A stretch of 64,000 nucleotides of DNA. Source: a virus. Made by a program: the position numbers and the translations under genes. A model generated the notes under the pieces. That model worked only from the letters and a program-made list of their open reading frames with translations. It ran no database searches and had not been told where the DNA came from. The DNA is taken from positions 1-64,000 of the IMG/VR virus record IMGVR_UViG_3300017774_003070, one strand, 5' to 3'. This document shows, one piece after another, positions 1,820 through 23,929 of this stretch. The stretch's first letter is position 1. Every line of letters starts with the position of its first letter.

Positions 1820-1947
1820 GACAATAGAATTAAAACCTTAATCATTTTACTCATAATGTAAGCCCAAGGTAAGCTGTACATCACAGTGCATGTTTAGTGT
1901 AGCTTGCACTTGCTACTTAGAACTCATTTGTAATCAAATACCACAGT

Positions 1948-1998
1948 CTGTTTATCCTGAAGGAATAAACTGGCAATTCATTTTTTCAAGATGAATAG
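1948..1998 (-). repeat. Double-hairpin intergenic element, copy 1 (near-symmetric, readable on both strands)
   Basis: Minus strand CT-ATTCAT-CTTGAAAAA-ATGAAT-TGCCAG-T...ACAG aligns with copies at 4659 and 7880. Confidence 0.8.
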
Positions 1999-2020
1999 CT
2001 AAGCTGATGAGTTAAAAGAT

Positions 2021-2070
2021 AAAGTAGTTACCCAACTCATACATTACTGTACAGGTCAGATAACTACTTT
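2021..2070 (-). terminator. Hairpin or terminator downstream of 2078..2512
   Basis: 10-bp inverted repeat AAAGTAGTTA/TAACTACTTT 7 nt after the stop codon, with a T-rich tail on the minus strand. Confidence 0.5.
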
Positions 2071-2077
2071 ATTAAGA

Positions 2078-2512
2078 CTAGAACGCTTCCTTACCGTCTG
2101 GTGGTACTAGCTTCCCATTCTCATCAACCAGCTCTTCCTCTTTGTGTTCAGGCTGTTTGTTGTCGTTGGTATCATCAGCAGCTTCTACTTTACCATTACC
2201 GTAAGCATTCTGAAAGGCTTTACCGTTGATGGCAAGTTCAATTGCACTGATAGCACCATCACCCAAACGAGTGACTTGAGGCTGAAGAGATACCCGACCA
2301 GTCTTAGGATTAACGTTGTCAACCATGACGATCTTGACCATGTAGGTTTTACCCACTTCAAAACCAGCACGTTGAGCAATGGTACCATTGACGATACGAC
2401 GGAAAGGTACAATACCAAAGATCGGGTCAAGAATCAGAGGCTTGTTACCATTGGTGTCTTCATCACCAGATACGAAAACAGAAGGATTGACAATTGCGAA
2501 ATAAGTTGTCAT
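2078..2512 (-). CDS. Hypothetical protein with acidic C-terminal tail (possibly SSB-like)
   Basis: Biased codon usage; beta-rich core; acidic tail ending in ...DGKEAF. Confidence 0.7.
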   Translation of the reverse strand: MTTYFAIVNPSVFVSGDEDTNGNKPLILDPIFGIVPFRRIVNGTIAQRAGFEVGKTYMVKIVMVDNVNPKTGRVSLQPQVTRLGDGAISAIELAINGKAFQNAYGNGKVEAADDTNDNKQPEHKEEELVDENGKLVPPDGKEAF

Positions 2513-2765
2513 TGTTTAGTTGTTTAATTGATTAACAATTGGTTCGTTGACACTCAACTTCTGAGGTTGATTTACCGTAATGTCACGGTGTCATTAATGT
2601 GCTTACAGTATCACCAAAACAGTGACAGTATAAAGTTTAGCAAGATTGTGGGGAAAATGGGAGAATGTGAAAGAAAGAGAAAGAGTGGAAAGGAGTTGCT
2701 CCCAACCTCTACACCAGTAAACACTAGCATTTTCAACCCTTTCACACCCTCAATTGTGAAAAAAA

Positions 2766-3014
2766 CTAGACACTAAAAGGTACATAAGCCTCACTAATAT
2801 CTACCCCATTCACAAACTTGTATATTCCTTTCCATTCATCAGCGAGAATGAGTTTATTACCTGAAAAGATAGAACCGTCTGAATTAACTCCAGTGATAGC
2901 TCTATACTTATCCTTCACTTCAGGAAACAACGAAGGAGTTTTTACAATCTTACACCATAGATAAGGTGCTTGATTTAACATACGCTGATCTACCTCAGCC
3001 ATTAACTTTTCCAT
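2766..3014 (-). CDS. Hypothetical protein
   Basis: First ORF of the leftward unit. Confidence 0.65.
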   Translation of the reverse strand: MEKLMAEVDQRMLNQAPYLWCKIVKTPSLFPEVKDKYRAITGVNSDGSIFSGNKLILADEWKGIYKFVNGVDISEAYVPFSV

Positions 3015-3047
3015 GTCACTATATATTAAGGTGAAACAATCAAATGT

Positions 3048-3120
3048 GAGAGCTATCCTCGCGCTGCCATCATAACTGGTTTCGACGCAACGTGAATTTC
3101 TACCCTATTGGATAGCTCTC
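3048..3120. other. Structured leader or stem-loop upstream of the leftward unit
   Basis: 11-bp perfect inverted repeat GAGAGCTATCC/GGATAGCTCTC enclosing further pairings (TCGCG/CGTGA, CCA/TGG). Confidence 0.55.
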
Positions 3121-3625
3121 TATAACCCAACCTACTAGCCTAAGGATGTGCATATAAGTAAAGTATTTTGACAAACGTCATTACACCTTAATATATACAC
3201 AGAATAAGGACACAATCCATCATACTCTCGTACGTCATAGATCATGTCCTAGTGAAGGTTTATAGCAATACCTACAACTCTTGCTGACCAAGCTTGATTT
3301 CATTTTAACGAGTAGTCTTCTCGTGTCAGTCTAAGATTACACCTGACAAGGATGTAAAATGTCAATCTTTATCTTGACAAACGATTATCCTCAGAACAGT
3401 CCGGGGATGCTCGAACGCTAGAAAGGGTGACGGGGATAAAGGTTGGGAAGCATTACGTTTATCACTAATATATTAATTTCACCAGGGGCTACTTTTTATC
3501 TGACAATAAGGTCGGGGGTAGTTGAATAAATTAGACTAAGTAGGGGCTATGTTTATACTTTCCTTAAATATGCCATTCTGTCAGATATTTTTACAATCAA
3601 ATGACACATTGTCAGTTCAGACGAA

Positions 3626-3656
3626 TTGACTTGTATCTAACTTCTCCTTATATTTG
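3626..3656 (+). promoter_or_regulatory. Bacteroidota sigma70-type promoter
   Basis: TTG(3626)-20 nt-TATATTTG(3649-3656) matches the -33 TTG / -7 TAnnTTTG consensus. Confidence 0.7.
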
Positions 3657-3662
3657 CCCCTG

Positions 3663-4125
3663 TACTAAAAGCTAGTAACTTTTTTACCCTGACTAACAAA
3701 CACACGGGAGTGGAAGAAAGGAGTCAGGAGAAGCAGCGTGGATACTCTAAATAGGAGGAAGGATAGCTGTAAGTACAAAAATGGTTAAACTTTGAAATGA
3801 TTAGTGAGTTGAATCTTCCAGTCTTATGAGATAACTTCAACGTAAGATGGTCAAAATAACTAGGGTAGAAGATTCTTAATGGTAGGTTTGCGGTGTTACA
3901 TCTCACTTTACTACCAACGAGGCACTCAACTGAGAACACTGCTAATCAATAAGAATTTAACTGATACTGAGAAATCACACAATGAGAATTAATTTTCTAA
4001 GGGGTTTCCCATGTGACGAAGTTACTACTTCTAAGTTATTTACTTAGTTCGATTCTTCATGGGAAACACATCAAGTAACTGAGTCAATCACGAGGTTACG
4101 TTAGCTACAATAGCATACCTTACTT
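3663..4125 (+). ncRNA. Candidate structured ncRNA or long 5' leader
   Basis: No + strand ORF of 60 aa or more between the promoter and 4159; several nested inverted repeats (see findings); boundaries approximate. Confidence 0.4.
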
Positions 4126-4158
4126 AATACAATTCAATAACAGTACAAGTCTATCAAA

Positions 4159-4395
4159 ATGACACTTACAGAGCTAATCAGAACTGGTTTTAATTACAAG
4201 CAATACAAGGTTATCCTTTACTGTATTCTTAAAAGAGATACTGACGGGGTGTTCACTTTTGGTAAAGCTCAAGTAGCCGAGCTACAAGAGATGACCAATC
4301 TTACACCTAGAGTGATAAGGAGAGCGTTCAATAGTATGGCTGACACTTTCTTTTTTAAGCTGAGTAAGAACACGTATCAATTTACAGAAGAATGA
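4159..4395 (+). CDS. Small protein, possible winged HTH
   Basis: Helix-turn-helix-like segment ELQEMTNLTPRVIRRAFNSM followed by a beta hairpin; ATGA coupling to the next gene. Confidence 0.6.
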   Translation: MTLTELIRTGFNYKQYKVILYCILKRDTDGVFTFGKAQVAELQEMTNLTPRVIRRAFNSMADTFFFKLSKNTYQFTEE

Positions 4396-4658
4396 CACTA
4401 TATCTTGATTCTACAGTTACATTTGGTAAGTACGCTGGGACAAAGATAAAGGATATTCCTAGTGCTTATATCAATTGGCTACGAGAGAACACACAGTACA
4501 AGATCAAGTGGACTAAGAAGCCGCAAGAAGAAGAGTTTAACTATGACAACTTCAAACTCACTTTCTTACAGATTATCCAACTTGAGTACAATCATAGAAA
4601 GCTGTGTACTGACCTTGGAAGACAACTAATTTATTCAAACGTTCAAATACCTTTCTAG
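4392..4658 (+). CDS. DUF3820/ExoX C-terminal-like domain protein
   Basis: Motif TFGKYAGTKIKDIPSAYINWL matches the FGKYxG...P..YL.W signature. Confidence 0.7.
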   Translation: MTLYLDSTVTFGKYAGTKIKDIPSAYINWLRENTQYKIKWTKKPQEEEFNYDNFKLTFLQIIQLEYNHRKLCTDLGRQLIYSNVQIPF

Positions 4659-4708
4659 CTGTTTATCTTGAAAGAATAAACTGTCAGTAAAAATTAAAAT
4701 TTTAACAG
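4659..4708 (+). repeat. Double-hairpin intergenic element, copy 2
   Basis: CT-GTTTAT-CTTGAAAGA-ATAAAC-TGTCAG-T-AAAAATTAAAATTTTA-ACAG fills the whole gap between the TAG and the next ATG. Confidence 0.8.
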
Positions 4709-5056
4709 ATGAACAACCTAATTATTGACGAAGAATTTGAGAAGCTTCCAGACCATGTTAGAAATAGGATGATACGTGAAGCAGATTCTGTTTCTTACTC
4801 TGCTTCTTTCATTCCTGGTGATAGTTACTCTCTTCCTAAAATGAATTCACCTCTTACATCTACTGGAGAAAGATACAGTAAGATTGCAGTATACTCTGGT
4901 GGTAATTTAAGACATCTCCAAGAATTACTTTACCACAGAATGCATACAGCTAGGAAGATACTAGAACACAACACTGACAATCCTGTGAAAGACATGTTGG
5001 TAAAGTACCTGGAGATGATTGAGAATGGGATTAAGAAAGCTTTAATTTTAGAATGA
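4709..5056 (+). CDS. Hypothetical protein
   Basis: ORF with ATGA coupling. Confidence 0.7.
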   Translation: MNNLIIDEEFEKLPDHVRNRMIREADSVSYSASFIPGDSYSLPKMNSPLTSTGERYSKIAVYSGGNLRHLQELLYHRMHTARKILEHNTDNPVKDMLVKYLEMIENGIKKALILE

Positions 5057-5370
5057 TGGGCTGGTTAAAACTGATTGAAGAAATTACCCCTGACACTATA
5101 ACAGTCAATGACAGAGAAGAGTTACTATCATTGATCAGGAATGTTGTTGAATTACATGGTGTACCTAGACGAGCACCGTACAATCCTATTACTCCTGAGA
5201 TGGATAGTATCATGCTTAGGATGATTGACGAATTACCCAATGGTGGTTATGTGATTAAAACTAAGAAACTCATTAAGACAGAAAAGTTCAATAACCTACT
5301 TAAAGAGGAAGTTGACAAATTACTACTGGAAATTATGGAAAGAGATACACTTAACTTAGAAATAGAATGA
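5053..5370 (+). CDS. Hypothetical protein
   Basis: ORF with ATGA coupling. Confidence 0.7.
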   Translation: MMGWLKLIEEITPDTITVNDREELLSLIRNVVELHGVPRRAPYNPITPEMDSIMLRMIDELPNGGYVIKTKKLIKTEKFNNLLKEEVDKLLLEIMERDTLNLEIE

Positions 5371-5762
5371 TGGAAGTAAAAGACTTTATAGGTAAGACAA
5401 TTCCTCTAAGAAACAACCTCTACAATGAGAATGAAGTAGTAGATCACGTAATAAAGGATATTGTCTTCAGAGGTGATAAGCTGTTTATAATCTTTGAAGA
5501 TGACATAGAAATGGAGTTTCTTCACAACACACTAGAATCCTTACACGCTTACATTGAATCCTTTACTACAACTACTAAGATAAGTCATATCTTAGATGAA
5601 GAGTTAAAGAAGTCTAGCATTATAGGTAGAGAAGTCTTCTTCAAAGAGGGTATTAGCACGATCAAAGCTATTGAGGTTAATTATTACGGTATTAAAGTCA
5701 CCCTCACAGATGACAGTGAGTTCTTTGTAGAAGAAGGATTTTGGAATTTAAAAGTAAGGTGA
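5367..5762 (+). CDS. Hypothetical protein with a possible internal two-fold repeat
   Basis: Halves resemble each other (FIGKTI...IKDIVF...FEDD vs IIGREV...IKAIEV...LTDD). Confidence 0.7.
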   Translation: MMEVKDFIGKTIPLRNNLYNENEVVDHVIKDIVFRGDKLFIIFEDDIEMEFLHNTLESLHAYIESFTTTTKISHILDEELKKSSIIGREVFFKEGISTIKAIEVNYYGIKVTLTDDSEFFVEEGFWNLKVR

Positions 5763-5763
5763 C

Positions 5764-5794
5764 TTGCACAATTCAAAATCTTAGTTTAGCTTTG
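5764..5794 (+). promoter_or_regulatory. Bacteroidota sigma70-type promoter
   Basis: TTG(5764)-20 nt-TAGCTTTG(5787-5794). Confidence 0.7.
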
Positions 5795-5810
5795 CACGAA
5801 ACAACTAACT

Positions 5811-5954
5811 ATGAATTTCCTAAAAACAAAAGTATTTCCAAACGACGAGACTTCTGTAACTTGGGGTAAGTTATTCTTGATTGTAGGAGGACTTCTTGCT
5901 GGTGGTGTAGTACTTACACTGCTTGTAATGAAGGTTCTTGGTTCACTTAACTAA
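5811..5954 (+). CDS. 47-aa single-pass membrane protein (not in the ORF track)
   Basis: MNFLKTKVFPNDETSVTWGKLFLIVGGLLAGGVVLTLLVMKVLGSLN; directly after the promoter, AT-rich leader. Confidence 0.7.
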   Translation: MNFLKTKVFPNDETSVTWGKLFLIVGGLLAGGVVLTLLVMKVLGSLN

Positions 5955-5958
5955 AACA

Positions 5959-5996
5959 TGAGGAGGCAACTAAACACTGTCTCCTTCACTATTTAA
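5959..5996 (+). terminator. Terminator-like hairpin
   Basis: GGAGGCA/TGTCTCC stem followed by CACTATTTAA, the same tail as the post-capsid hairpin. Confidence 0.45.
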
Positions 5997-5999
5997 CGA

Positions 6000-6245
6000 A
6001 TGATGTACTTAGTAACTGAAGAAGAGTTTGAAGACTTAATCACTTCTTATGACTTTATTACCAAGATGAACTTTACAAATAAAGAGCAGGTGAAGTTAGC
6101 TATGGATTATTGTCAGAGTAGAGATAGGTTAACTACAGACATTGCAGATTACTTACTTGATCTATTAAACACACTACCTGAGTATGAACTGGAAACTGAC
6201 AAAAGCTACGAAGATTGGAAAACTGCTGGAATTAGTGCTAACTAA
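6000..6245 (+). CDS. Hypothetical acidic protein
   Basis: ORF. Confidence 0.65.
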   Translation: MMYLVTEEEFEDLITSYDFITKMNFTNKEQVKLAMDYCQSRDRLTTDIADYLLDLLNTLPEYELETDKSYEDWKTAGISAN

Positions 6246-6378
6246 CGAGGAAAGAATTCTAAACAACTTTCATCTTCCACTTAGCACTAACCACGATCAC
6301 TTGATCAATGTAGTTGGAATACTGGCTACAAAAGATGAATACATTAATCAAATCACTTTAATAGTTGAAAAACGATGA
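6184..6378 (+). CDS. Hypothetical protein
   Basis: ORF coupled by ATGA to 6375; start uncertain. Confidence 0.5.
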   Translation: MNWKLTKATKIGKLLELVLTNEERILNNFHLPLSTNHDHLINVVGILATKDEYINQITLIVEKR

Positions 6379-6584
6379 ACACACAATATGGAGTACTTGC
6401 TAAGAATGGTATTAACTACACAGTCTTAGAAGAAGGAGACAAAATGTATCTTCGGATATGTGAGGGTAAAGTGGTACTTAAATTTCCAATTACTAAAGAA
6501 GTCATTTCTACCCTAAATTGGCTCGTTAACAAAGATACAGTGGGCAGTATAGACATACCTAAAAACTCTGTAATCAAATACTAA
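6375..6584 (+). CDS. Hypothetical protein
   Basis: ORF. Confidence 0.6.
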   Translation: MNTQYGVLAKNGINYTVLEEGDKMYLRICEGKVVLKFPITKEVISTLNWLVNKDTVGSIDIPKNSVIKY

Positions 6585-6585
6585 C

Positions 6586-6771
6586 ATGATACTTCAATTC
6601 TTTACTTACAAACACTTACCAGAGCATCTTCAAGAGGTTAGTAAACCTTTCTGTGAGTTAGCTAACTGGATCAGTGAGAACTTGGAACCTAATTCAGAAA
6701 CATCTACTGTACTTAGAAAGCTGTTAGAAGCTAAAGATGCAGCAGTCAGAGCAAAACTATACAAACCATGA
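6586..6771 (+). CDS. Small helical-hairpin phage protein (HLP..LQEVSKPF...LRKLLEAKDAAVRA family)
   Basis: Motif recalled as widespread in phages; two predicted helices. Confidence 0.7.
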   Translation: MILQFFTYKHLPEHLQEVSKPFCELANWISENLEPNSETSTVLRKLLEAKDAAVRAKLYKP

Positions 6772-7325
6772 AAATAGGATTTGGTGCAATCATAGGAGCA
6801 TTATTAATGTTCTTTGGATTCAAGCAATGTGAACAACCACAAGAAGTACGTACAATAACTAAAAAGATCAGTGTACCTACTTACATTGAGAAGGTAACTA
6901 CAGTCAAAGTACCAGTTACTAAGATCAAGTACATTAGATTGTATGATACAACTACAAGTTATGTGCATGATACGCTAAATCAGCTTGTAGAAGTTGTTTC
7001 TTACGACACTACAAAGTCTCTTGCTGTTATACCTTATAGTGACAGTCTGGTTAACATCTCAGACTCAATCACTCTTACAGGTACAATCTTAGATTTCAAG
7101 CGTAAGGTCATAGTAAAGGAAAGACAACCTGATACTATCACTGTGACTAATCAAGTGACTAAGTATTTCAGAGGAATCAAAGGTTACATAGGAGCAGATT
7201 CTGATTTATTGCAACCTATATTTGGACTTTCCTATGATTCTAAAAAGTTTCAAGTATCTTTGGGCTACAGACCTGTTACTAAGGTTGTAGAAGCAAGACT
7301 TTTCTTACCACTTATCAAACTATAA
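6768..7325 (+). CDS. Membrane-anchored exported protein (possible spanin-like or lipoprotein)
   Basis: N-terminal hydrophobic segment then QC; Thr/Val-rich body with six D(S/T)(L/I/T) motifs; C-terminal amphipathic beta-strands. Confidence 0.6.
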   Translation: MKIGFGAIIGALLMFFGFKQCEQPQEVRTITKKISVPTYIEKVTTVKVPVTKIKYIRLYDTTTSYVHDTLNQLVEVVSYDTTKSLAVIPYSDSLVNISDSITLTGTILDFKRKVIVKERQPDTITVTNQVTKYFRGIKGYIGADSDLLQPIFGLSYDSKKFQVSLGYRPVTKVVEARLFLPLIKL

Positions 7326-7329
7326 CAAA

Positions 7330-7875
7330 ATGGTACAAGCAGAGCCAGATTTTGAAATGGAACTTCCAACAGAAACATTGATTAACCCTGAGTTTGAACA
7401 GGTAAAGCAACCTACACCTCCGTTAGGGGGAGAGATTGCTACACTTCTCAACCTTGCAGACCTCATCTCTACTCGTATTGATGTAGCGAAGTCTCTCAAG
7501 ACAGATACAAGTAAGCTGATCAGTGCTAGAGGTTGGACACTAGACTTGGCTAAAGCACTTGGTAATACTGATCCTTATCAGTTCATTCCAGAGAAACAAC
7601 CACGTCAATTGATTGGTCTGGTTATCAATAACGAGATTAGAATCCTTGATGAGATTGTAGACTTTATTGAACAAGCAGCAGGAAGTTTCCAAGAAGCACT
7701 GAATAAGTTCAATCAACCTTTCGTTGACAAGATCAAGTCATTACAGCCACTTGGGGAAAAGACGAAGGAAGACCAGGAAGAAGCTTACAAGCAGATTATC
7801 TCTCTTATCTATCCTTACTTCCAGATGATTTGTCAGAACTTGAAAGAAGCTAAATTTCAATACGAATCAAAGTAG
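7330..7875 (+). CDS. Hypothetical helical protein
   Basis: ORF. Confidence 0.7.
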   Translation: MVQAEPDFEMELPTETLINPEFEQVKQPTPPLGGEIATLLNLADLISTRIDVAKSLKTDTSKLISARGWTLDLAKALGNTDPYQFIPEKQPRQLIGLVINNEIRILDEIVDFIEQAAGSFQEALNKFNQPFVDKIKSLQPLGEKTKEDQEEAYKQIISLIYPYFQMICQNLKEAKFQYESK

Positions 7876-7879
7876 TCTC

Positions 7880-7929
7880 CTATTCATCTCGAAGAAATGA
7901 ATTGGCAGTAAAATCTAAAGATTTAACAG
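7880..7929 (+). repeat. Double-hairpin intergenic element, copy 3
   Basis: CT-ATTCAT-CTCGAAGAA-ATGAAT-TGGCAG-T-AAAATCTAAAGATTTA-ACAG, 1 nt before the ATG. Confidence 0.8.
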
Positions 7930-11041: not shown

Positions 11042-11686
11042 ATGATTACTCAAAAACTAATAACTAAGAATAGACCTTTCAAGAAGCTTAAAGAACTACG
11101 AGGTATTGTAATTCACTGGACAGCTAATACACGTAAAGGTGCTAATTCTCAAGCTCACTATCTGTACTTTAATGCAGCTAACAGATCGTCCTCTGCTCAC
11201 TATTTTGTAGATGATAAGTCTGTACTACAGTTGATCCCAGATGATGAAGTAGCATGGCATGTAGGTGATAGCATTAAGTTAGCTAGTCTACCACTACGAG
11301 CTAAATATGTACCTAAAGGTGATAATCCTAACAACTACTTTATTGGTATTGAGATGTGCATGAATGAGGATTCTAATCAGCAAAAAGTACTTGACAATAC
11401 TGTGCAGTTGGTTACTGAACTCATGCTCAAATACAAGCTTACTAAAGATCAAGTTGTACGTCACTATGACATTACAGGTAAAGATTGTCCTAAAATGTTT
11501 GTACCACTTGTTGTTAATGGTGTCAAGTTAGAACATGCTTGGTTAGCTTTTAAAGATAAGTTACCGATAACACCAGAAGTACCACAAGCATACAGTATCA
11601 CGCAAGAACAAGAAACTAAATTAACTACATGGGAACTGTTATCACTGAGTCTACACCAAATCTTAGCCTTTATTCGCAAGATGTAG
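11042..11686 (+). CDS. N-acetylmuramoyl-L-alanine amidase (Amidase_2 endolysin)
   Basis: IVIHWTA, SAHYFVD, AWHVG, IGIEMC, RHYD..GKDCP Zn-amidase motifs. Confidence 0.9.
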   Translation: MITQKLITKNRPFKKLKELRGIVIHWTANTRKGANSQAHYLYFNAANRSSSAHYFVDDKSVLQLIPDDEVAWHVGDSIKLASLPLRAKYVPKGDNPNNYFIGIEMCMNEDSNQQKVLDNTVQLVTELMLKYKLTKDQVVRHYDITGKDCPKMFVPLVVNGVKLEHAWLAFKDKLPITPEVPQAYSITQEQETKLTTWELLSLSLHQILAFIRKM

Positions 11687-14600
11687 ACTGGATAAAAATT
11701 GAGAATTTGAAAAGTATTTTGTCACAGTTTGAACCTGTACACTTACATCCTGATGATCCTCAATATAAAGTTCAGTGGAATGGTCTACGCACTAAACTAG
11801 TTGATGGAATCTTCTTTCCTCAGTTTGGTAAAGTAAGGTATGTTCCTGGTAGACTAGGTTTCTATGCTAAGTTCTCAACTATTGTAGATACAAAGGACAA
11901 GGTACGTTATGAGATTACTCCTGATATTAGAGACTTAGAGTTTCATTTTGCATACTATCTTACTGAAGCTCTTGGATTTTCAGGTTTCTCTAATGATGAC
12001 CGATATACTTGTGACAGACGTATTCATAAGTTCAATAAGCTCAAGATAGACCAGCAATCAGAACTCATTACTAGCAATGGTAAGCTTAAGGAATTTAGAG
12101 AGCCAAGAGAATACCTATTCAGCCTTCACGATGATGATTTAGGACAACCATTATACAAGAATGATGCCTCTAATTTACTAGTTCTAGGTGCAAGAGGAGG
12201 TGGGAAGGCTACACGTTGTTATGAAACGGTATACAAATCTACAGGAAAGTCTACAATAGGAGAGCTTGTTGCAGGAGATCAAATTTATGGATCAGAAGGA
12301 GAATTAATAAACGTACTTGATGTCCACCCTCAAGGTGTTACAGATGTATATAAAGTTGAATTCTCAGATGGGCGAAGCCTAGTTACTCATCCAGATCATT
12401 TATGGAAACTTAGAAAGAAAAAGAATCCTGTGAGTACCATTGAAATGCTGGAAAAAGGATTATTCTATGAACACAAGAAATCTGGTAAATCTTACAAGTT
12501 TCAAGTTGAGCAATGTAAAGAAGTACAGTATCCAGAAAAAGAGTTGCCTATACATCCTTACATTCTAGGAGCTTTACTTGGAGATGGTACAATGACTACC
12601 AAAACTCCTAAGTTAGCGAGTAGCGATGTAGAAATACTCGACAGGTTTAAAGAGTTACTTCCTGAGTATGAGTTTAAGTATGACGAGTCTACTACTAACA
12701 ATTATACCATTAAGTATCTAGGAGATGAGAGGATATTTGTAAAAAGAAAAGTTAAAGGTGATTTCTGGACACATCACAACCCTTTACATACAGAGATAAA
12801 GAAGCTTGAACTAAACGTAACTTGCAAAAACAAATTTATACCTGATATTTACAAGTATGGTTCTGTTGAACAACGTTACGAGCTTGTACGTGGATTAATG
12901 GATACTGATGGTTCTATCAATAAGGAAGGATCAATTGAGTTTACAAATACTTGTGGTACATTACTTCAAGATTTGAAAGAAGTACTACAAAGTCTGGGAA
13001 TTAGATGTTCAGTAGGTGAAGATGATAGATCTGATCAATCTCATTTTATAAAAGGTAAGGAGTATCAAAGAGGTAAATACTCAAGACTGTATATCAATAC
13101 TTCTAAAGATATATTCTTCTTACCTAGGAAAAAAGAAAGACTCAGATCTAGACAGAAAGAAGGATTTGTATCTATTGTAAACATTGAAAAACTACCTGAG
13201 CAAGAAGAGACTACTTGTATCACAGTAGATGCTCCAGATCATTGCTATCTTACCACTGATTATCTTGTTACTCATAACTCGTATACGTTCTCATTAATGG
13301 CTGTAAAGTACGAGTTAGCATTTCATGGTGCTAGGAATTCAGACAAACCTATCGGTAAGACTTCTGTAGAAATTGGTTCTGGACAAGTATCTAAGTCTTC
13401 TGAATTAATTGACAAGATTGTACTTTCTAACGAGTGTTTGAAGAAGGAGAAGTTTGGAGCATATGGAGAAGAAGGTGATGACGACTTTGAACCTTGTCCT
13501 TTCTACATGTGGATGGATGGATCTTTTCGGGTCAACAATCAGCAAAATCCTTGGATACAGCAAAAGACAGTTAAGAAAGGTAAGTCTTGGAAAAAGATTG
13601 GCAGAAAGTCTACTCTTTATCACTCCTCTTACTCTACTAATAAAAAAGAAGGTGCTGAAGCCTCTGCTGGTGGTCGTAGAAACATGATTGTTTACGAGGA
13701 GATTGGTCTTACTGCTTTGATCAAAGAGGTGTGGGGGTCAAACAATGCTGTTGTACGTACAGACTCTGAACAGTATGGTTCTCAAATTGGTATTGGAACG
13801 TCTGGTAACATTGAATTGATTCAGTCAACTAAGCACATCTTTACTCATCCAAAAGATTACAACTGTCTGATCTTTGGAAAAGGTAATGGATTCTTTCTTC
13901 CTGCCCCACTGACTAACAAGGACTTTAAGGATGAAAATGGAAATACTGATCTTGATGAAGCTTACGACTACTACATAAAGAGACGTGAAGAGGCTAAGAT
14001 GGCTTCTGATCCACAAGTACTCATTGCAGAAAGGATGAACTATCCACTGTCTATTGAAGATATGTGGTTAGGAGGTTCATCAGGTTATCTTCCTGACAAA
14101 GAAGCTGAATTACGTGAGAAGGAATTGATAGCAGGAAACCTTTACGAAAATATTGGACAAGCTGTAGAATTAGTCTGGGATAGCAAAGTAGCATCAGGAG
14201 TAACTTACAGAATCAAACCTAAGTCAGAAGCTAAACCTATCTACAATTGGCCTCTTAGTCCTAATGATCCTACTCATGGTGAGATAATGATTTACATTCA
14301 TCCTGAGAAACTAAAGGTTAATGGTATACTTCCTAACGATGCTATTATCTTTTTACATGACCCTTACGTATCTGATGAATTAGACAAAGGAGGATCACTT
14401 GGAGCTTCTTACGCAATTGTGAATCCTAAATATGAAAGCTTTGGTTTACCTTCGTATCAGATAGCAGCAACTTGGATTAGCAGACACCCACATGGAGTAG
14501 ACGCTTACAATGAAGAGTTTGAGAAGCTGATACAGTTCTATGGTAATCCAGTAAGAAATGTATGGTATGAAGCCAACCGAGGTGATAGATTTAAAGGACA

Positions 14601-14985
14601 TATTACCAAGAAGAAAAAGAACTTCCTGTTATGTCTTAGACCTCAGTTTGAACAAGGCCAGTACATCTACACACGTAATGCTACACAGACAGGTTATGTA
14701 GTATCTAATCAGATTGCTAAAGTGACACTGCTTGATGGTTTACGTGATCTACTGCTCATGGACGTTGGTGGTAAACTACTTATAGAAACTATACCTTGCT
14801 TGTTTACAATAAAGCAAATACGACAATTTAAAATGGATGGAAACTTTGACGGCGTATCAGCTCTTCAGGGACTTCCACTAGCAATAAAAGAAATAGAGCA
14901 TTATACAAGTAATCGGCAGCAGACTGGAGTACTTCATTCAATTTCAAAAAACTTGGTAAAAAGGCTGCGACCTAATTACACATAA
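11629..14985 (+). CDS. terL: Terminase large subunit containing an intein
   Basis: Walker A GARGGGK/S split by an intein; Walker B IVYEEIG; GTSG coupling motif; RNase H-like C-terminal domain (HDPY, YEANRG, NFDGVSA); followed by portal. Confidence 0.92.
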   Translation: MGTVITESTPNLSLYSQDVDWIKIENLKSILSQFEPVHLHPDDPQYKVQWNGLRTKLVDGIFFPQFGKVRYVPGRLGFYAKFSTIVDTKDKVRYEITPDIRDLEFHFAYYLTEALGFSGFSNDDRYTCDRRIHKFNKLKIDQQSELITSNGKLKEFREPREYLFSLHDDDLGQPLYKNDASNLLVLGARGGGKATRCYETVYKSTGKSTIGELVAGDQIYGSEGELINVLDVHPQGVTDVYKVEFSDGRSLVTHPDHLWKLRKKKNPVSTIEMLEKGLFYEHKKSGKSYKFQVEQCKEVQYPEKELPIHPYILGALLGDGTMTTKTPKLASSDVEILDRFKELLPEYEFKYDESTTNNYTIKYLGDERIFVKRKVKGDFWTHHNPLHTEIKKLELNVTCKNKFIPDIYKYGSVEQRYELVRGLMDTDGSINKEGSIEFTNTCGTLLQDLKEVLQSLGIRCSVGEDDRSDQSHFIKGKEYQRGKYSRLYINTSKDIFFLPRKKERLRSRQKEGFVSIVNIEKLPEQEETTCITVDAPDHCYLTTDYLVTHNSYTFSLMAVKYELAFHGARNSDKPIGKTSVEIGSGQVSKSSELIDKIVLSNECLKKEKFGAYGEEGDDDFEPCPFYMWMDGSFRVNNQQNPWIQQKTVKKGKSWKKIGRKSTLYHSSYSTNKKEGAEASAGGRRNMIVYEEIGLTALIKEVWGSNNAVVRTDSEQYGSQIGIGTSGNIELIQSTKHIFTHPKDYNCLIFGKGNGFFLPAPLTNKDFKDENGNTDLDEAYDYYIKRREEAKMASDPQVLIAERMNYPLSIEDMWLGGSSGYLPDKEAELREKELIAGNLYENIGQAVELVWDSKVASGVTYRIKPKSEAKPIYNWPLSPNDPTHGEIMIYIHPEKLKVNGILPNDAIIFLHDPYVSDELDKGGSLGASYAIVNPKYESFGLPSYQIAATWISRHPHGVDAYNEEFEKLIQFYGNPVRNVWYEANRGDRFKGHITKKKKNFLLCLRPQFEQGQYIYTRNATQTGYVVSNQIAKVTLLDGLRDLLLMDVGGKLLIETIPCLFTIKQIRQFKMDGNFDGVSALQGLPLAIKEIEHYTSNRQQTGVLHSISKNLVKRLRPNYT
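12208..13278 (+). mobile_element. Class 3 intein (357 aa) with LAGLIDADG homing endonuclease
   Basis: Starts at Ala after GK, ends THN|S; W in block B (THPDHLW), C in block F (TTCITVD), T in block G; LAGLIDADG helices LGALLGDG and VRGLMDTDG. Confidence 0.9.
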
Positions 14986-17515: not shown

Positions 17516-18406
17516 ATGGATTTTCTACCAGAATTTGATTTAGATGAACCTGAGATCATTGAACAAGAGGATGAGCAGGTTGATTTACCAGAAAACGCAG
17601 ACCCTAATGTGGTAGCTGCTTTTGAGTACTATCGAGATAATAACTTTTTTTCGATTAGTACTGAGGACTTTGATGGAACCCCTGAAGGACTACAATCCCT
17701 TCTGACTAATCAGTGGCAACACTCTCAGCAGAGCTTGATTAATAATGCTCCTGACTTTGCCAAACCTCTCATTGAGCTTGTACAGCTTAAAGGCCAGAAC
17801 TTCACAGAAGATGAACTAGTAGAGGCTTTGAATATTATCAAGCCACCTGTACTAGATCTTACCAATGAAGATCAAGCTGAATCCTACCTTAGAAGTTCTT
17901 ATGCTAAAGAAGGTATGACGCAAGAGGAAATTGATGAAGAGATTGAAGAGTTGAAGTACAAAGACAAGTTGACTAAAGCTGCTGAACGTGTATTACGAGT
18001 AGAACAGAAGCTGAACAAAACAAGCTTAGTTGACAAAGTTGAGCAAGTTAAAGCACAGCAAGCTAACGAGATGAAAGATGCTCAAGAGTTTGTAGCTAAG
18101 TTTCAACAGACTATCAATGAACTTCCTTGGCAAGCTGAAACTAAAGCAGCTATTCAAGAAGAGTTCCAGACAGGTAAGTTTAAGACAAAGCTAGAGACAA
18201 TCTTCCAGAGTCCTAAAGACTTAGCTGATCTAGTAGCTTTTGTTCAACATTATGGTTCCAATGGATTTAATTTAACTGCTTATCAGAAAGCAGCATTTAG
18301 CCCTACAGTAAAGAAGGTGAGAGATACTTACAAGAACTACTGGGGGAATACAGCAATTACAAGTAACAAAAAACAATCTAGTCAAGAGTTTGATTTTGAC
18401 TTTTAA
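17516..18406 (+). CDS. Putative capsid scaffolding protein
   Basis: Acidic helical protein between portal and major capsid protein. Confidence 0.65.
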   Translation: MDFLPEFDLDEPEIIEQEDEQVDLPENADPNVVAAFEYYRDNNFFSISTEDFDGTPEGLQSLLTNQWQHSQQSLINNAPDFAKPLIELVQLKGQNFTEDELVEALNIIKPPVLDLTNEDQAESYLRSSYAKEGMTQEEIDEEIEELKYKDKLTKAAERVLRVEQKLNKTSLVDKVEQVKAQQANEMKDAQEFVAKFQQTINELPWQAETKAAIQEEFQTGKFKTKLETIFQSPKDLADLVAFVQHYGSNGFNLTAYQKAAFSPTVKKVRDTYKNYWGNTAITSNKKQSSQEFDFDF

Positions 18407-18418
18407 ACAAAACAATTA

Positions 18419-20014
18419 ATGGATCGCAAATCAGCACTTCAGGTTACAGAGTATAAGGCGTTCGGTGGTACGTTCTTTGACTCTATCTCACACGCGGCTA
18501 TGTTCCGTGATGAGAAAGCTTATGACTTTGGTGTTATGACAGCAGGTTTGTTCAGCTCAACTAAAATGATGGGTTTGACAAATAAGCGTTGGTCGTATCT
18601 TACCATTGCTCAAGGCAACGTTTATGTACTACCAGCAGGTACTAATGATTACCAATGGTCAGTAGCAGGAGATAGCGAAATTGACTTCCGCTTTACTGAA
18701 CTGTTAGTAAGTACTTCTGCACAAGTAGGTAAAGGCAACACTACATTTGACATTGCAATTGACCGTAACTGGTTGAAAGCACCAGCAGTTCTTAAGTTGG
18801 GAGCTTCTGACAATGCACCTAGTATTGAAATCCTTAGCAACCAAGCAGAGCCTTTGAATGCTCACTCTTGGAAGTACACTTGTCAATTACAAGACGGTAA
18901 TCCTAACTCTTGGATTCCAGCTTTTTACTTGGCTCCTGGTCAATTGGCTAACCGTATTTCTACTCGTGTATCTAACGAAGAGAACTACAAAGGTGCTGGT
19001 GACTATTACCAATCATTTACCAAGTTGCGTTCTGTAGTAGGTCAGTACTCTAACGAGATTGGCTTTACTGACAAATTCATCAAGCGTGAAATTGCAGCAG
19101 CTAAAGGTAATGGTCAAGGTATGACTTACGAAGACACTGACGGCAAACAATACCGTGATGCATTCTCTCGTGGTTACATCTACCAGACAAGCTTGAAAGA
19201 CAAGAATACCAATGAAATTGTACAGAAAGGTGTGTTTATCACTAAAGCTGAACAACGTTTGTTGGAACGTACTGAGCTTGACCGCGAACGTGCAATGGAA
19301 TTCGGAAGACTTCAGATTGACAATGACTTGGATTCAGGTCGTGCGAAGAAAACTGCTCCAGGTTGGAGACAGATCGTAATGGATGGTCAAATCATGCCTC
19401 ACAATGGCAACTTTACCTTGAACGATCTGTATGACTTTTTGCACCAAGTATTCTTCCGTCGTCGTGGCTTTATGAATCGTAAAGCGTTACTCGTAGGTGG
19501 TACAGGTGCAATCAGCTACTTGTCCAACTTGATTGCTCAGAATGCTTCTGTATTCCAGACACTTGAGCCAGGGTTTGCTGTACGTGACAATGCTGAACCA
19601 GTAGGTGTTCACAAGTATGAGAAAGAGTTTGGTTTCCAGTTCACGAAGATTCGTTTGCCTATGGGTATTGACGTGTCTATCATGTACGATCCAAGCAAAG
19701 ATGATGACACTCTGTTCAAAGAAAAGATGCCTGGAAGTTATTTGCCAAAAGAGTCTTTCAACATTGACGTTCTGGACTTCGGTCAGACTGAAAATGCTGC
19801 TGAGAATTCAAGTGGTGAAAACATCTGTATGGTAATGGAAGATCAGTCTGATTACTACTACAGCGTTGCCAACGCAATTGACTTTAAGAATGGTATTGTT
19901 CGTGATGGTTCTAACGTATACAAGAACGGTAAGACGTTGGAGATCAAGCGTGAATTGTCTGGGTCATTGTGCATTTGGGACGCAACTGCCGTCGGAAGGA
20001 TCGTTTACATTTGA
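18419..20014 (+). CDS. Major capsid protein (crAss-like HK97 fold)
   Basis: 531 aa, strongly optimised codons, synteny, followed by a terminator. Confidence 0.85.
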   Translation: MDRKSALQVTEYKAFGGTFFDSISHAAMFRDEKAYDFGVMTAGLFSSTKMMGLTNKRWSYLTIAQGNVYVLPAGTNDYQWSVAGDSEIDFRFTELLVSTSAQVGKGNTTFDIAIDRNWLKAPAVLKLGASDNAPSIEILSNQAEPLNAHSWKYTCQLQDGNPNSWIPAFYLAPGQLANRISTRVSNEENYKGAGDYYQSFTKLRSVVGQYSNEIGFTDKFIKREIAAAKGNGQGMTYEDTDGKQYRDAFSRGYIYQTSLKDKNTNEIVQKGVFITKAEQRLLERTELDRERAMEFGRLQIDNDLDSGRAKKTAPGWRQIVMDGQIMPHNGNFTLNDLYDFLHQVFFRRRGFMNRKALLVGGTGAISYLSNLIAQNASVFQTLEPGFAVRDNAEPVGVHKYEKEFGFQFTKIRLPMGIDVSIMYDPSKDDDTLFKEKMPGSYLPKESFNIDVLDFGQTENAAENSSGENICMVMEDQSDYYYSVANAIDFKNGIVRDGSNVYKNGKTLEIKRELSGSLCIWDATAVGRIVYI

Positions 20015-20030
20015 TATAAGTTAATAATAC

Positions 20031-20060
20031 GAGAGGGTGAGATTCCCTCTCACTATTTAA
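20031..20060 (+). terminator. Intrinsic terminator after the major capsid gene
   Basis: GAGAGGG/CCCTCTC stem followed by ACTATTTAA. Confidence 0.6.
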
Positions 20061-20081
20061 TTCAAAATCATTAAAAGACGT

Positions 20082-21170
20082 GTGATGAGCGTAGATAAGA
20101 TTTATGTAATGTCTGTACCTAGAGTATCGGTACAAGGACGAAGCCACTACGAATATCGTAGTTCTGAAGGTAATTCTCAATCTATTGGTCGTTCTAAAGT
20201 TAGAGGTGCTATAACTCCTCTTCAGTTTCATAGGACTGACAATAGACTGGTTACAGGACTTGATGAGAATATTACTAATCCATACAAAGGTTTGGAATGT
20301 AAAGCTTCTCATTGGTTAGAAAGCTGGGATAAGATTGAGAAAGCTGATGAGTTGAGTTTGCAGCAAGTGTACGAAATTAAAGACAATGTACCTGCTGGTA
20401 CTTATACGTCTGTAGTTACTACACCTACTATGACAACTGCAATGAACTCTCCTAAGCAAGCTGAAAGAATAGAAGCTGAACGTACTTTCTTGGAAGGATT
20501 CAAATGCTACTTAGAAGAAGGTACTAATGTATTCTCTGCGGATACTGATCGTGGACGTTGGTGCATTCACATTTGTAAGAGTCACCCACTTGTAGCTAAG
20601 AATGCTCAAGAAGTAAACCACGACATTCACGAGTTCTACATTGGTGAAGAAGAAGAAGCATTGAAGCAGAAAGTAGAGAAGAGAAATGTACTGATGGAAG
20701 GTTTAAGCAATCTAGGAAATCTAGTGAAGTCTTATCCTCACTTCTCTCAGCAGCAAATCTCAACTATCCTCAAGCTGAACTACTCTGATACTTCTGAAAC
20801 TACAACTAAGTCAAGTCTTCAGGAATATGTATTTGAAGATCGTAAGACAGCTAATGGTACTCAACTAGAACGTATTGATACCTTTAATAAGATTTACGAA
20901 CTCTTAGAAAAAGAGCCTGATAGAGTTTACATTAAATACTTGGTAGAACAGGCAGTTAAGAATTATGTAATCTTAATGGATGGAGGGAAGTATATCTGGA
21001 GATCACAGAAAGGAATTGATAACCTTTATTCTCTAGGCATCAAAGGGCACACAGTTGAAAATCTCTTCTTGCAAGAGTATGAGCAGTATGATCCTAAAGC
21101 CCCTAATCCAGATAATGCTTACGTCAAATTAATTAACGAGCTGAAAGGCTTCGGAGTTAAAATACAGTAA
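20082..21170 (+). CDS. Conserved crAss-like structural-module protein
   Basis: Synteny directly after the capsid gene. Confidence 0.6.
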   Translation: MMSVDKIYVMSVPRVSVQGRSHYEYRSSEGNSQSIGRSKVRGAITPLQFHRTDNRLVTGLDENITNPYKGLECKASHWLESWDKIEKADELSLQQVYEIKDNVPAGTYTSVVTTPTMTTAMNSPKQAERIEAERTFLEGFKCYLEEGTNVFSADTDRGRWCIHICKSHPLVAKNAQEVNHDIHEFYIGEEEEALKQKVEKRNVLMEGLSNLGNLVKSYPHFSQQQISTILKLNYSDTSETTTKSSLQEYVFEDRKTANGTQLERIDTFNKIYELLEKEPDRVYIKYLVEQAVKNYVILMDGGKYIWRSQKGIDNLYSLGIKGHTVENLFLQEYEQYDPKAPNPDNAYVKLINELKGFGVKIQ

Positions 21171-21901
21171 TGATTAAAGTAGAAGAGTTACACAGCAAGT
21201 TTGAAATGGCATACAATCGACAAGCTAATAATCAACGTAGGTATTTAAACGACGTTGAGAAAGACGAGCTTTTGAACTATGCTGTATTTGAGTATGTGGA
21301 ACTCTTTACTACTGGAGTAAATAAGAACAATTGGAATATAGGCTTTGAGGTTACTCAGCAACGAATTGACATGCTGGAACCTCTTGTTAAATCCTACCCT
21401 GAAGAGCCAAGTCTCAAGCTGTCAGTCAATGACGGAATCTACATTGCAGACTTAACCAAGACGGCTTTTCCTCTCAAGTCATTTCACGGAGCCTATATTT
21501 CAATTTCTGAATGTAGTGATAGAATTAACATAGACATAGATCAGCATCAAGACTTGAATACTGCTAGACAGAATCAACACAGAAAGTCTAGTAGAGCTTG
21601 GAAAAGATGTATAGGTACAATTAGGAATAAGAAACTCTTCTTGTATCCTGATGGATCAATGACTCCACTTAATGTCTATCTCACTTACATTAAACAACCA
21701 GATAAGATTGCACTAGGGACATATCCAGCGTTACAAGACAAGGATATTCCTAATGCAATTAACTTAACTAAAACAGACAGTGATTTACCAGCACAGTACA
21801 TTGACATTGTAGTTTCAATTGCAGTTCAAGAAGCTCACAGAAGATTCAGCAATTACAATGACTTGCAGGTTAACTCACAAAAGATTAATACAATCGTATA
21901 A
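21170..21901 (+). CDS. Head-tail adaptor (ring) protein
   Basis: Helical N-terminus, YLTYIKQP motif, C-terminal IVVSIAV typical of podophage tubular/ring proteins; synteny. Confidence 0.65.
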   Translation: MIKVEELHSKFEMAYNRQANNQRRYLNDVEKDELLNYAVFEYVELFTTGVNKNNWNIGFEVTQQRIDMLEPLVKSYPEEPSLKLSVNDGIYIADLTKTAFPLKSFHGAYISISECSDRINIDIDQHQDLNTARQNQHRKSSRAWKRCIGTIRNKKLFLYPDGSMTPLNVYLTYIKQPDKIALGTYPALQDKDIPNAINLTKTDSDLPAQYIDIVVSIAVQEAHRRFSNYNDLQVNSQKINTIV

Positions 21902-21931
21902 CATTCGGGAAACTGAATTAAAAAGAAAAAC

Positions 21932-23293: not shown

Positions 23294-23299
23294 TAAATT

Positions 23300-23330
23300 A
23301 GGGAGTGCTTAGAAATAGGCACTTCCCTTT
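23300..23330 (+). terminator. Intrinsic terminator
   Basis: AGGGAGTGC/GCACTTCCCT stem followed by TT. Confidence 0.55.
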
Positions 23331-23350
23331 CACTCTCTAAATTCACGACA

Positions 23351-23929
23351 ATGGATATGTTTTTTGGAAAAGGACAATTCAACGGACGCAGACGTAAGAA
23401 CCTATTTATGGGTGATGGTGGCTCTAGTAATTTCGATTACGGTAAAGGAGTTCGTCAACTACTTGCTGAAGCAACTGCAATTTCCTTTGGTTCTACTCTT
23501 TCTGTAACTGGTGCTGTAACGGCTGCTAGTTCAATTACTGCTACTGGACAGATCATTGGTACTGGTGTAGATCAACTATTGGGTAAACTTATTGGTGCTA
23601 ACATGAACGTTCTCACTGACCAAGCTATTCCGATTACTCGAATTGGTACTCAGAAATACATCATTACGAAGATCGTAGTTACCAACGCATCTACAAGCTT
23701 AACTGCTGCCGATGGTGGTATCTATACTGCTGTTTCTAAAGGTGGTACTGCAATTGTAGCTGCTGCTCAAGTGTATACTGCTCTTACTTCTGCAACTGTA
23801 GCTCTGGATCTTACTTTGGCTGTAAATAACACTTACACCTTAGATAACTTGTACTTGTCTCTGACTGGTACTCAAGGTGGTGCGGCTACTGCTGACATTT
23901 ATGTATTTGGAATTGTTCTTCCAGCGTAA
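23351..23929 (+). CDS. Putative head fibre or virion protein
   Basis: Thr/Ala/Gly-rich beta protein in the structural module. Confidence 0.6.
   Translation: MDMFFGKGQFNGRRRKNLFMGDGGSSNFDYGKGVRQLLAEATAISFGSTLSVTGAVTAASSITATGQIIGTGVDQLLGKLIGANMNVLTDQAIPITRIGTQKYIITKIVVTNASTSLTAADGGIYTAVSKGGTAIVAAAQVYTALTSATVALDLTLAVNNTYTLDNLYLSLTGTQGGAATADIYVFGIVLPA

Follow-up and report, generated by a model that had tools for sequence, protein, structure and literature searches.

A covarying double-hairpin element with a putative regulatory role at four gene boundaries of a crAss-like phage

An earlier note on a window of 64,000 nucleotides (nt) of viral DNA (bases 1-64000 of IMG/VR record IMGVR_UViG_3300017774_003070) had described a 50-nt double-hairpin element at three intergenic sites and had read it as a structure-selected signal. 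We find that the element is real, structure-selected and lineage-private, with a putative regulatory role, the observation concerning a single lineage. Over the whole genome it comprises six copies of one hairpin module, arranged in four sites round the divergent early control zone of a deep-branching crAss-like phage of freshwater. Our favoured reading, to which we give a probability of roughly one in three (0.35), is that the element is a cassette that has spread and acts at the level of DNA, as a promoter-like candidate signal to the crAss-type polymerase that the phage injects. For the question of how the giant polymerase injected by crAss-like phages locates its starts, the element is a concrete candidate, and a testable one because it is short, clearly bounded, covarying and placed round the early control zone. 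If it is indeed a start signal, it would be the first defined promoter architecture for the crAss-type polymerase class.

Six copies of one module make up four sites

A strict structural scan of the whole genome (6-bp stem, C, NN, a G/A-A-A loop, NN, A, the complementary stem and TGNCA) returned six copies of one module, at 1950+, 1996-, 4661+, 7882+, 102621+ and 102667- (the sign giving the strand). Each is preceded by CT and has the order CT, 6-bp stem, C, 2 bp, GAA or AAA loop, 2 bp, A, stem and TGNCA. The three copies of the earlier note were confirmed in position and in layout, but their number was too low, the six modules making up four sites of which the fourth lies outside the window. 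Strict matches were absent from 60 dinucleotide-preserving shuffles of the genome, in which loose matches averaged 0.18; since the shuffled genomes yield none, chance palindromes are ruled out. A covariance model built from the six modules, a check that the earlier note had suggested, set them clearly apart from the rest of the genome, with the members scoring 44-49.5 bits and the next genome match 18 bits.

Every site is two-fold in architecture, with CT, a hairpin, a palindromic TGNCA core, an inverted second hairpin and AG. In two of the sites a whole further module, on the opposite strand, serves as second hairpin: site 1 combines an alpha stem (+) with a beta stem (-), and site 4 a gamma stem (+) with a delta stem (-). 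The copy at 1948, which had been called near-symmetric, is accordingly an inverted doublet of alpha and beta modules round a TGGCA core. Sites 2 and 3 have a shorter second hairpin, type II (5 bp, TAAA loop), which on the opposite strand starts with CTGTT and ends in AC-TGNCA. Modules are mixed between sites (alpha plus beta at site 1, alpha plus type II at site 2, beta plus type II at site 3), and the beta modules 1996- and 7882+ are inverted repeats of each other (30 nt, 90%). On the sense strand the order is the same at all four sites: GAA-type hairpin, TGNCAG, second hairpin.

Pairing is maintained while the stems diverge

Across the six modules all pair cells (48/48) form standard pairs, five of the eight pairs are changed on both sides (12 double-change cells), and the observed covariation score was matched in 0 of 500 shuffles, while in slid-partner controls pairing fell to 31-54% of cells. 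Four different stems are present (GTTTAT, ATTCAT, ATTGAT and GTAGAT), and the covariation that had been noticed in stem 1 is thereby upheld. Type II hairpins likewise keep their pairing despite the change of sequence, as had been proposed for the second hairpin, with two compensated pair differences between sites 2 and 3 (AAAAT/ATTTT versus AAATC/GATTT). Invariant or nearly invariant positions are C5, T8, A11, T12, C13, A17, A18, A21, A22, T23, A26, T28, G29, C31 and A32, and C13 stands opposite A21 in every module.

The two strands differ in how well they pair. Three G.T pairs sit on the GAA-loop (sense) strand, with the corresponding A.C mismatches on the complementary (template) strand; the complementary strand has T.G in place of C.A and folds as a continuous 9-bp stem. 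The predicted stability of the DNA folds is modest (-5 to -7.5 kcal/mol, z -1.2 to -2.6) and the RNA folds are weak (z -0.65 to -2, with -3.55 solely for the antisense + strand of site 4). Because thermodynamic stability is modest, the case for structure depends on covariation, which backs the idea of a structure-selected signal and shows that the hairpins are maintained by selection for pairing plus fixed bases (C opposite A, GAA loop, CT and TGNCA). The full modules on both strands at sites 1 and 4 suggest a DNA-level unit rather than a unit of sense RNA only.

The sites occupy gene boundaries round an ORF-free zone

The genome record, a linear contig of 103,829 bp without end repeats, is estimated to be 96% complete. 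Two gene arms diverge from a 1.1-kb zone free of open reading frames (ORFs) at 3015-4158, the + arm (4159-69565) carrying small ORFs, endolysin, terminase and portal genes and running on to the polymerase, and the - arm running leftward from 3014, past the contig start, to 69632. The minimum of the cumulative GC skew lies at about 2-4 kb.

All four sites are intergenic and stand at gene boundaries only. Site 2 takes up all 50 nt that separate the stop codon TAG (4656-4658) from the next start codon (ATG, 4709), and site 3 lies 4 nt past the stop at 7875 and 1 nt ahead of the ATG at 7931, in agreement with the claim that these two copies fill stop-to-ATG gaps; the first stem of site 4 includes the stop codon of the upstream gene. 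Altogether the element adjoins the stop codon of the upstream gene at three of the sites and the following ATG at two, the distance from element to next start codon being 0, 1, about 76 or about 94 nt. The layout is mirrored round the ORF-free zone, each arm having two genes, an element, about 3 kb of small genes and a second element, with site centres 1041 and 4199 nt to the left of the zone and 525 and 3746 nt to the right (the 4199-nt figure assumes no missing sequence at the contig ends). A + oriented module is present at every site, at spacings of 3158, 2711 and 3221 nt, and 7-10 ORFs separate successive sites. The suggestion that each copy points along local transcription is carried by sites 2 and 3 only, since the symmetric sites 1 and 4 point both ways.

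The giant ORF at 51005-60505 (Table 1), the only one of its size in the genome, is the candidate virion RNA polymerase and carries DFDID, the motif by which this enzyme is defined in crAss-like phages (preprint 10.1101/2020.03.07.982082). Sequence searches with this ORF against PHROG and PDB, including phmmer against PDB with N4 mini-vRNAP among the targets, gave no match. The crAss assignment is further supported by a Crassvirus muzzle protein (PF25731) encoded near this ORF and by a portal protein with 22-23% identity to those of crAss-like and Flavobacterium phages.

Site 1 is nested in a tRNA-like scaffold and is missing from one strain contig

Site 1 lies at the anticodon-loop position of a decayed transfer RNA (tRNA)-like scaffold. 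In the relative L026, whose upstream gene (the homologue of ORF 2078-2512) is 75% identical and whose downstream proteins are 38% identical to those of the phage, the same slot (L026:1441-1532) holds a tRNA-like gene and lacks the double-hairpin element. This gene has a perfect 7-bp acceptor helix (CAACACA/TGTGTTG), an oversized D region, an arm resembling that of the anticodon, a T arm with TTCGATT, and ACCA. In the phage the slot retains a compensated acceptor-like helix round a decayed interior that contains the double hairpin. ARAGORN gave no tRNA call for the window or for L026 and, at default settings, none for the whole genome, and Rfam gave nothing relevant for the element or for the tRNA-like slot at gathering or E-value thresholds. 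Upstream of site 1, the terminator-like hairpin that follows ORF 2078-2512 has a 12-bp AT-rich stem and a 26-nt loop and is kept in L026 with a shorter loop.

On the other side of site 1 lies block B, the leader of ORF 1220-1819, with a core of ATG-Y-A-S-TGTG, a covarying hairpin and ATGAGTAAA that recurs at L021:5606-5660, L022:745-790 and L009:9927-9975; a pattern scan of IMG/VR for block B returned none. Its ATGAGTAAA stands about 35 nt before the main ATG and starts a short upstream ORF (MSK...), which has 12 codons in L026 and is out of frame in the phage.

Strains near-identical to the phage were found in several freshwater metagenomes. One contig of run X2 joins 1947 to 2004, with TTAA replacing the 56 nt of 1948-2003, and so represents an element-less allele of site 1, known from this one contig at depth 4.1 with 30 nt on the shorter side. 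It leaves a small CAGT-TAA-ACTG hairpin at the would-be anticodon arm and points, if weakly, to the site 1 element being a discrete unit, present or absent, nested in a loop. Outside this allele the strains are identical across the elements, and no covariation was therefore gained from them. Mosaic breakpoints adjoin the elements and do not fall within them (1773, 1830, 1920, 2080 and 3016-3055). At 1773-2080, 3016-3055 and 5954-5980 the contigs of strains from four freshwater metagenomes pass into unrelated sequence, the heads of both arms being highly mosaic, and one run has 80 different letters in place of the 25 nt at 5955-5979.

Table 1 Positions of the element and of associated features (window coordinates unless marked genome).
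Feature	Position	Strand	Details
Site 1, inverted doublet	1948-1998	both	alpha module on + (CT, hairpin 1950-1970, stem GTTTAT/ATAAAC, TGGCA)
Site 1, second module	1996-1976	-	beta module, stem ATTCAT/ATGAAT, TGCCA; common TGGCA core 1971-1975
Site 2	4659-4708	+	alpha hairpin 4661-4681, core TGTCAG, type II hairpin; CT-hairpin-TGACA on - strand
Site 3	7880-7929	+	beta hairpin 7882-7902, core TGGCAG, type II hairpin
Site 4	genome 102619-102669	both	symmetric doublet, modules 102621+ and 102667-
Candidate virion RNA polymerase, crAss type	51005-60505	+	3166-residue ORF, GLDFDIDK at residues 2453-2460 (DFDID at 2455)
Decayed tRNA-like scaffold around site 1	1921-2013	-	7-bp acceptor-like helix AACTCAT (2013-2007)/ATGAGTT (1927-1921)
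Long hairpin, terminator-like	2019-2072	-	directly 3' of the stop of ORF 2078-2512, then ATCTTTT; upstream of site 1
Block B, leader of ORF 1220-1819	1846-1918	-	about 75 nt; near-identical to L026, scattered mismatches
TGWCA box cluster, several inverted pairs	3014-3615		densest 600-nt window of the genome

The element appears private to its lineage

The earlier note had looked to relatives for further copies and had taken their absence as evidence against the signal; among the distant relatives scanned there were none. Thirteen relatives' loci, which carry homologues (32-58% identical) of the product of ORF 1220-1819, had no match to the covariance model or to a relaxed hairpin+TGNCA pattern, and G001, a complete distant relative of 104.7 kb, had no match to the element. 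Repeat searches and relaxed hairpin+TGNCA scans of the same loci and of G001 likewise disclosed no analogous element. A generic IUPAC pattern run against 185,579 prokaryote species genomes (one each) gave 28 hits, all single and non-pairing, and over the pattern scans of IMG/VR and prokaryotes together all 30 hits were of this kind, with no multi-copy family. Given its absence from the 13 loci, from the complete distant relative and from the IMG/VR and prokaryote scans, the element appears to be private to the lineage of the phage.

The protein of ORF 1220-1819 itself has many homologues, the closest of which (P0001-P0007) are 74-87% identical. Searches of IMG/VR for the locus with single proteins returned nothing or one distant contig, and among GenBank phages neither megablast of 12 kb nor tblastn with a neighbouring protein gave a match. 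In G001 (L063-L064), the early arm at 17663-23747 contains five non-coding gaps of 313-1113 nt that are rich in tRNA-like fragments (GGTTCGAATCC T arms).

The element differs from known families of repeated signals

The element differs from each of the families named below in at least one tested defining feature. The hairpin promoters P1-P3 of phage N4 (PMC4496689), with which the earlier note had drawn an analogy, also stand in few copies near one control region of a phage with a giant packaged polymerase, and consist of a small hairpin with a 3-nt purine-centred loop, fixed bases and stems that vary yet keep their pairing; about 11 nt separate the loop centre from a conserved downstream box, and the polymerase prefers single-stranded templates. 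The N4 stems have 5-7 bp, with the transcription start about 11 nt downstream of the loop centre; our modules have a similar geometry, with a purine-centred 3-nt loop whose centre is 11 nt before the T of TGNCA. The analogy broke down for the enzyme, the composition of the stems and the strand that pairs. The N4 enzyme is T7-like (gp50 family), whereas that of the phage is of the crAss-type two-barrel class (DFDID), and the N4 hairpins are GC-rich, with a GC-rich heptamer at their centre, single, on the template strand and co-oriented at one genome end, the first to be injected (PMC4496689), whereas the present element forms AT-rich inverted doublets on both arms, bidirectional at two sites and with sense-strand pairing favoured. 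With a polymerase of another class, AT-rich doublets and the sense strand as the better-paired one, membership of the N4 promoter type was rejected.

REP, REPIN and BIME sequences of bacteria, which RAYT transposases mobilise (PMC3116915, PMC3337134, PMC2817692), share with the element the form of short extragenic imperfect palindromes in inverted doublets, presence or absence among strains and compensated structure. They occur in tens to hundreds of bacterial copies, with a GTAG/CGTC head and a RAYT gene, whereas the element has six modules, a CT head plus a variable stem, no RAYT found in the phage and no prokaryote copies found. PF01797 (Y1/RAYT) was absent from the phage genome and was detected in control genomes; transposase, copy number and head being the defining features that fail, a RAYT-type REP family was rejected. 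The attC-like site of the earlier note fared no better, since PF00589 (integron-type tyrosine integrase) was absent from the phage genome and detected in control genomes, the proposed CWGTT boxes are not conserved (end boxes CTGTT, CTATT and CCATT, versus GTTRRRY in attC), and successive sites are 7-10 ORFs apart, where attC sites would have single promoterless cassettes between them.

The PeSL (promoter-early stem-loop) cassettes of T4-type phages (PMC2839356) offer a partial parallel, being small repeated regulatory cassettes among small non-essential early genes in a plastic region, linked to mosaicism of strains and to gain or loss of segments. They consist of a sigma-70-like promoter plus a terminator stem-loop, whereas the element is a symmetric double hairpin that contains no TAnnTTTG box and no sigma-70-type match and has no U-tract after its hairpins. 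In the phage the region is mosaic among strains and site 1 is polymorphic, but the breakpoints lie beside the elements and not in them. For want of a U-tract, an intrinsic terminator was rejected as well, as was a mimic of CRISPR repeats suggested by the likeness of GTAGAT...ATCTAC to the Cas12a handle, because the arms are in reverse order, the other stems differ and prokaryote copies were not found.

Structured RNA elements also occur in both divergent early operons of lambda (nutL/nutR boxB) and HK022 (putL/putR), downstream of the control region, those of lambda with purine-rich hairpin loops (GAA...) and those of HK022 as a double stem-loop, and they act as sense RNA only. Unlike the element they are not palindromic doublets, and the element is accompanied by no identified N-like factor or terminator context.

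A promoter-like cassette is the favoured reading

We favour a lineage-private, two-fold pseudo-symmetric cassette that marks four boundaries between transcription units, two per arm, and would serve as a promoter-like signal for the injected polymerase. Under negative supercoiling both small hairpins would extrude and expose the TGNCA linker as single-stranded DNA, offering an entry point to an enzyme incapable of opening duplex DNA alone, and the direction would be set by which hairpin type stands on which side. The cassette may have spread by duplication and recombination, like the mobile regulatory cassettes of T4-type phages. Function and mobility need not exclude each other, and we see the element as a possible mobile regulatory cassette in the PeSL sense. 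The crAss-type RNA polymerase of phi14:2 (gp66) transcribes single-stranded DNA well and double-stranded DNA poorly, and the early transcripts of that phage have no common upstream motif (10.1101/2020.03.07.982082); the promoters of this enzyme class are therefore undefined and could be lineage-private. The more specific proposal, that cruciform extrusion makes the double hairpin the place at which the virion RNA polymerase starts and that each crAss lineage has its own private version, is more doubtful than the promoter-like cassette as such.

The mirrored placement at unit boundaries, the N4-like loop distance (11 nt), the giant ORF with DFDID, the asymmetric bases kept in modules with four different stems and the modules on both strands support the promoter-like reading, and site 1 sits after a conserved terminator-like hairpin. 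Cassette behaviour is suggested by the element-less allele of one contig and by the different small RNA gene of L026 in the same slot, which together hint that the cassette acts as a discrete unit that can be inserted or deleted. A good deal weighs on the other side. Transcription from the + modules of sites 1 and 4 would run antisense through real genes, among them ORF 2078-2512, which the 75% identical homologue shows to be genuine; two sites lie in the structural arm, which the host polymerase reads in phi14:2, and host-type TAnnTTTG boxes, at 3649 and 3883, stand upstream. Block B, which is widely conserved, looks like the true control region of ORF 1220-1819, and one strain contig does without the element at site 1. 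The stems are short, AT-rich and marginally stable, the three G.T pairs make the sense strand the better-paired one, where N4 has its hairpin on the template strand, and no analogous element was detected in the scanned relatives.

Ranked after the promoter-like signal come a REPIN-like insertion and then a sense-RNA element, and the three overlap. A non-autonomous palindromic insertion of REPIN/BIME kind, whose inverted doublets would have spread into tolerated intergenic spots in trans or by recombination, is a possible if less probable account, in which effects on expression such as protection of mRNA 3' ends would be secondary. It would make the element a rare miniature palindromic element in a virulent phage, to which the gain or loss in the tRNA-like gene of one contig would then be relevant. 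Each of the four sites joins two imperfect palindromes in inverted orientation, as REPINs do (PMC3337134); modules are mixed between sites (alpha/beta, alpha/type II and beta/type II), the elements fit stop-to-start gaps exactly and the scanned relatives go without them. Site 1 in particular sits within a loop, that of a decayed tRNA-like hairpin, and is missing from one contig, with boundaries at the element ends, and another 50-nt double-hairpin insertion of different sequence lies in a tRNA-like gene at about 99.1 kb. This account has to contend with the small number and the placement of the sites, just four, mirrored and all less than 5 kb from the divergent zone; with the lack of a Y1/RAYT transposase or other recombinase found in the phage genome and of a multi-copy family in the 185,579 prokaryote genomes or IMG/VR; and with the absence of the GTAG/CGTC head and of a target duplication. 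The stems have, moreover, diverged with perfect compensation, and therefore appear to have been retained for long under selection, which counts against mere insertion.

RNA processing, antitermination or a translational operator had been candidates of the earlier note, and a cis-acting element of the sense RNA made from both arms, with a role in processing, in protecting 5' or 3' ends, in nut/put-like antitermination or in translational coupling, is retained as a rival, though we think it rather unlikely. The common sense-strand order of all four sites, the restriction of G.U-compatible pairs to the GAA-type strand (3 cells, 0 mismatches) and the abutting of stop codons at three of the four sites and of ATG at two would suit it, and two sites per arm past a divergent control zone recall lambda nutL/nutR and HK022 putL/putR. 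What it leaves unexplained is the full opposite-strand module at sites 1 and 4, complete with C.A, GAA loop and CT/TGNCA; the variable spacing to the start codon (0, 1, about 76 and about 94 nt), the position of site 1 downstream of a terminator-like hairpin, the weak RNA folds and the lack of an Rfam match also speak against it.

Three further explanations seem to us far less probable still. Hairpin I might imitate the anticodon arm of tRNA-Phe, as a decoy or substrate for a tRNA-directed enzyme of host or phage, which would suit its 7-nt inner segment N-U-GAA/AAA-R-N (U at '33' in 5/6 and purine at '37' in 6/6 modules, module 1996- reading UUGAAAA) and the place of site 1 at the anticodon-loop position of a decayed tRNA-like scaffold. 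We nevertheless regard it as improbable, as '32' and '38' covary as Watson-Crick pairs, leaving a 3-nt and not a 7-nt loop, AT-rich DNA would show U-NNN-R by chance about once in five, '33' is C in one module and ARAGORN at default settings calls no tRNA. Dyad symmetry with a palindromic core, modules recombined between sites and the mosaic nature of the region among strains could denote a site-specific recombination site (attC-, hix- or dif-like), whose TGNCA-core crossover would shuffle or invert segments of small genes; recombination between the inverted repeats 1996- and 7882+ would turn the intervening segment round yet keep the divergent gene layout. That no tyrosine or serine recombinase or Y1 enzyme was found in the phage genome, that four metagenomes contained no strand-switching joint, that mosaic breakpoints lie beside the elements and not at their cores and that attC R/L boxes are absent makes this a very unlikely alternative. 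There is, finally, only a slim chance that the element is a replication-linked signal, its hairpins forming in single strands on either side of an origin within the ORF-free zone and serving, for example, in priming or loading: the GC skew minimum at about 2-4 kb, the iteron-like TGWCA cluster, the + module at all four sites (spacings 3158, 2711 and 3221 nt) and a core holding CTG on one or both strands fit this idea, but GC skew tracks gene orientation too, the hairpins lack any tie to primase, and module orientation is not mirrored, contrary to bidirectional priming.

Other features of the control zone and of the genome

The TGWCA cluster of the ORF-free zone has 9-10 boxes in 600 nt (3014-3615), compared with a genome average of about 3 per kb, and includes pairs such as TGTCAA-N8-TTGACA; the boxes may be operator, iteron or start sites. 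Two weak look-alikes of the hairpin+TGNCA arrangement occur in the zone, at 3550+ and 3385-. Between 3390 and 3530 the zone is G-rich, with GGGG runs and a 30-nt imperfect repeat at 3467 and 3525, and this stretch may encode a structured non-coding RNA, phi14:2 having abundant early non-coding RNAs at a comparable position. Host-type Bacteroidota -7 boxes (TAnnTTTG) directed toward the + arm lie in intergenic DNA at 3649-3656, 3883-3890 and 5787-5794, nine such intergenic boxes being present in the genome in all.

PHROG and Pfam scans of the neighbouring proteins found nothing beyond a weak SAP/HeH-like motif (PF12843, 26.8 bits, over the cut-off) at residues 7-33 of the 88-residue product of ORF 4392-4658, directly 5' of site 2; to judge from this motif, the protein may bind nucleic acid. 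In the large terminase subunit (11629-14985, 1118 residues) a LAGLIDADG domain at residues 417-473 suggests an intein or a homing-endonuclease insertion. The other double hairpin of about 50 nt, at genome 99112-99178 (-), has loops GAGA and AAA and interrupts the T arm of a tRNA-like gene; it is not related in sequence to the element and lacks TGNCA.

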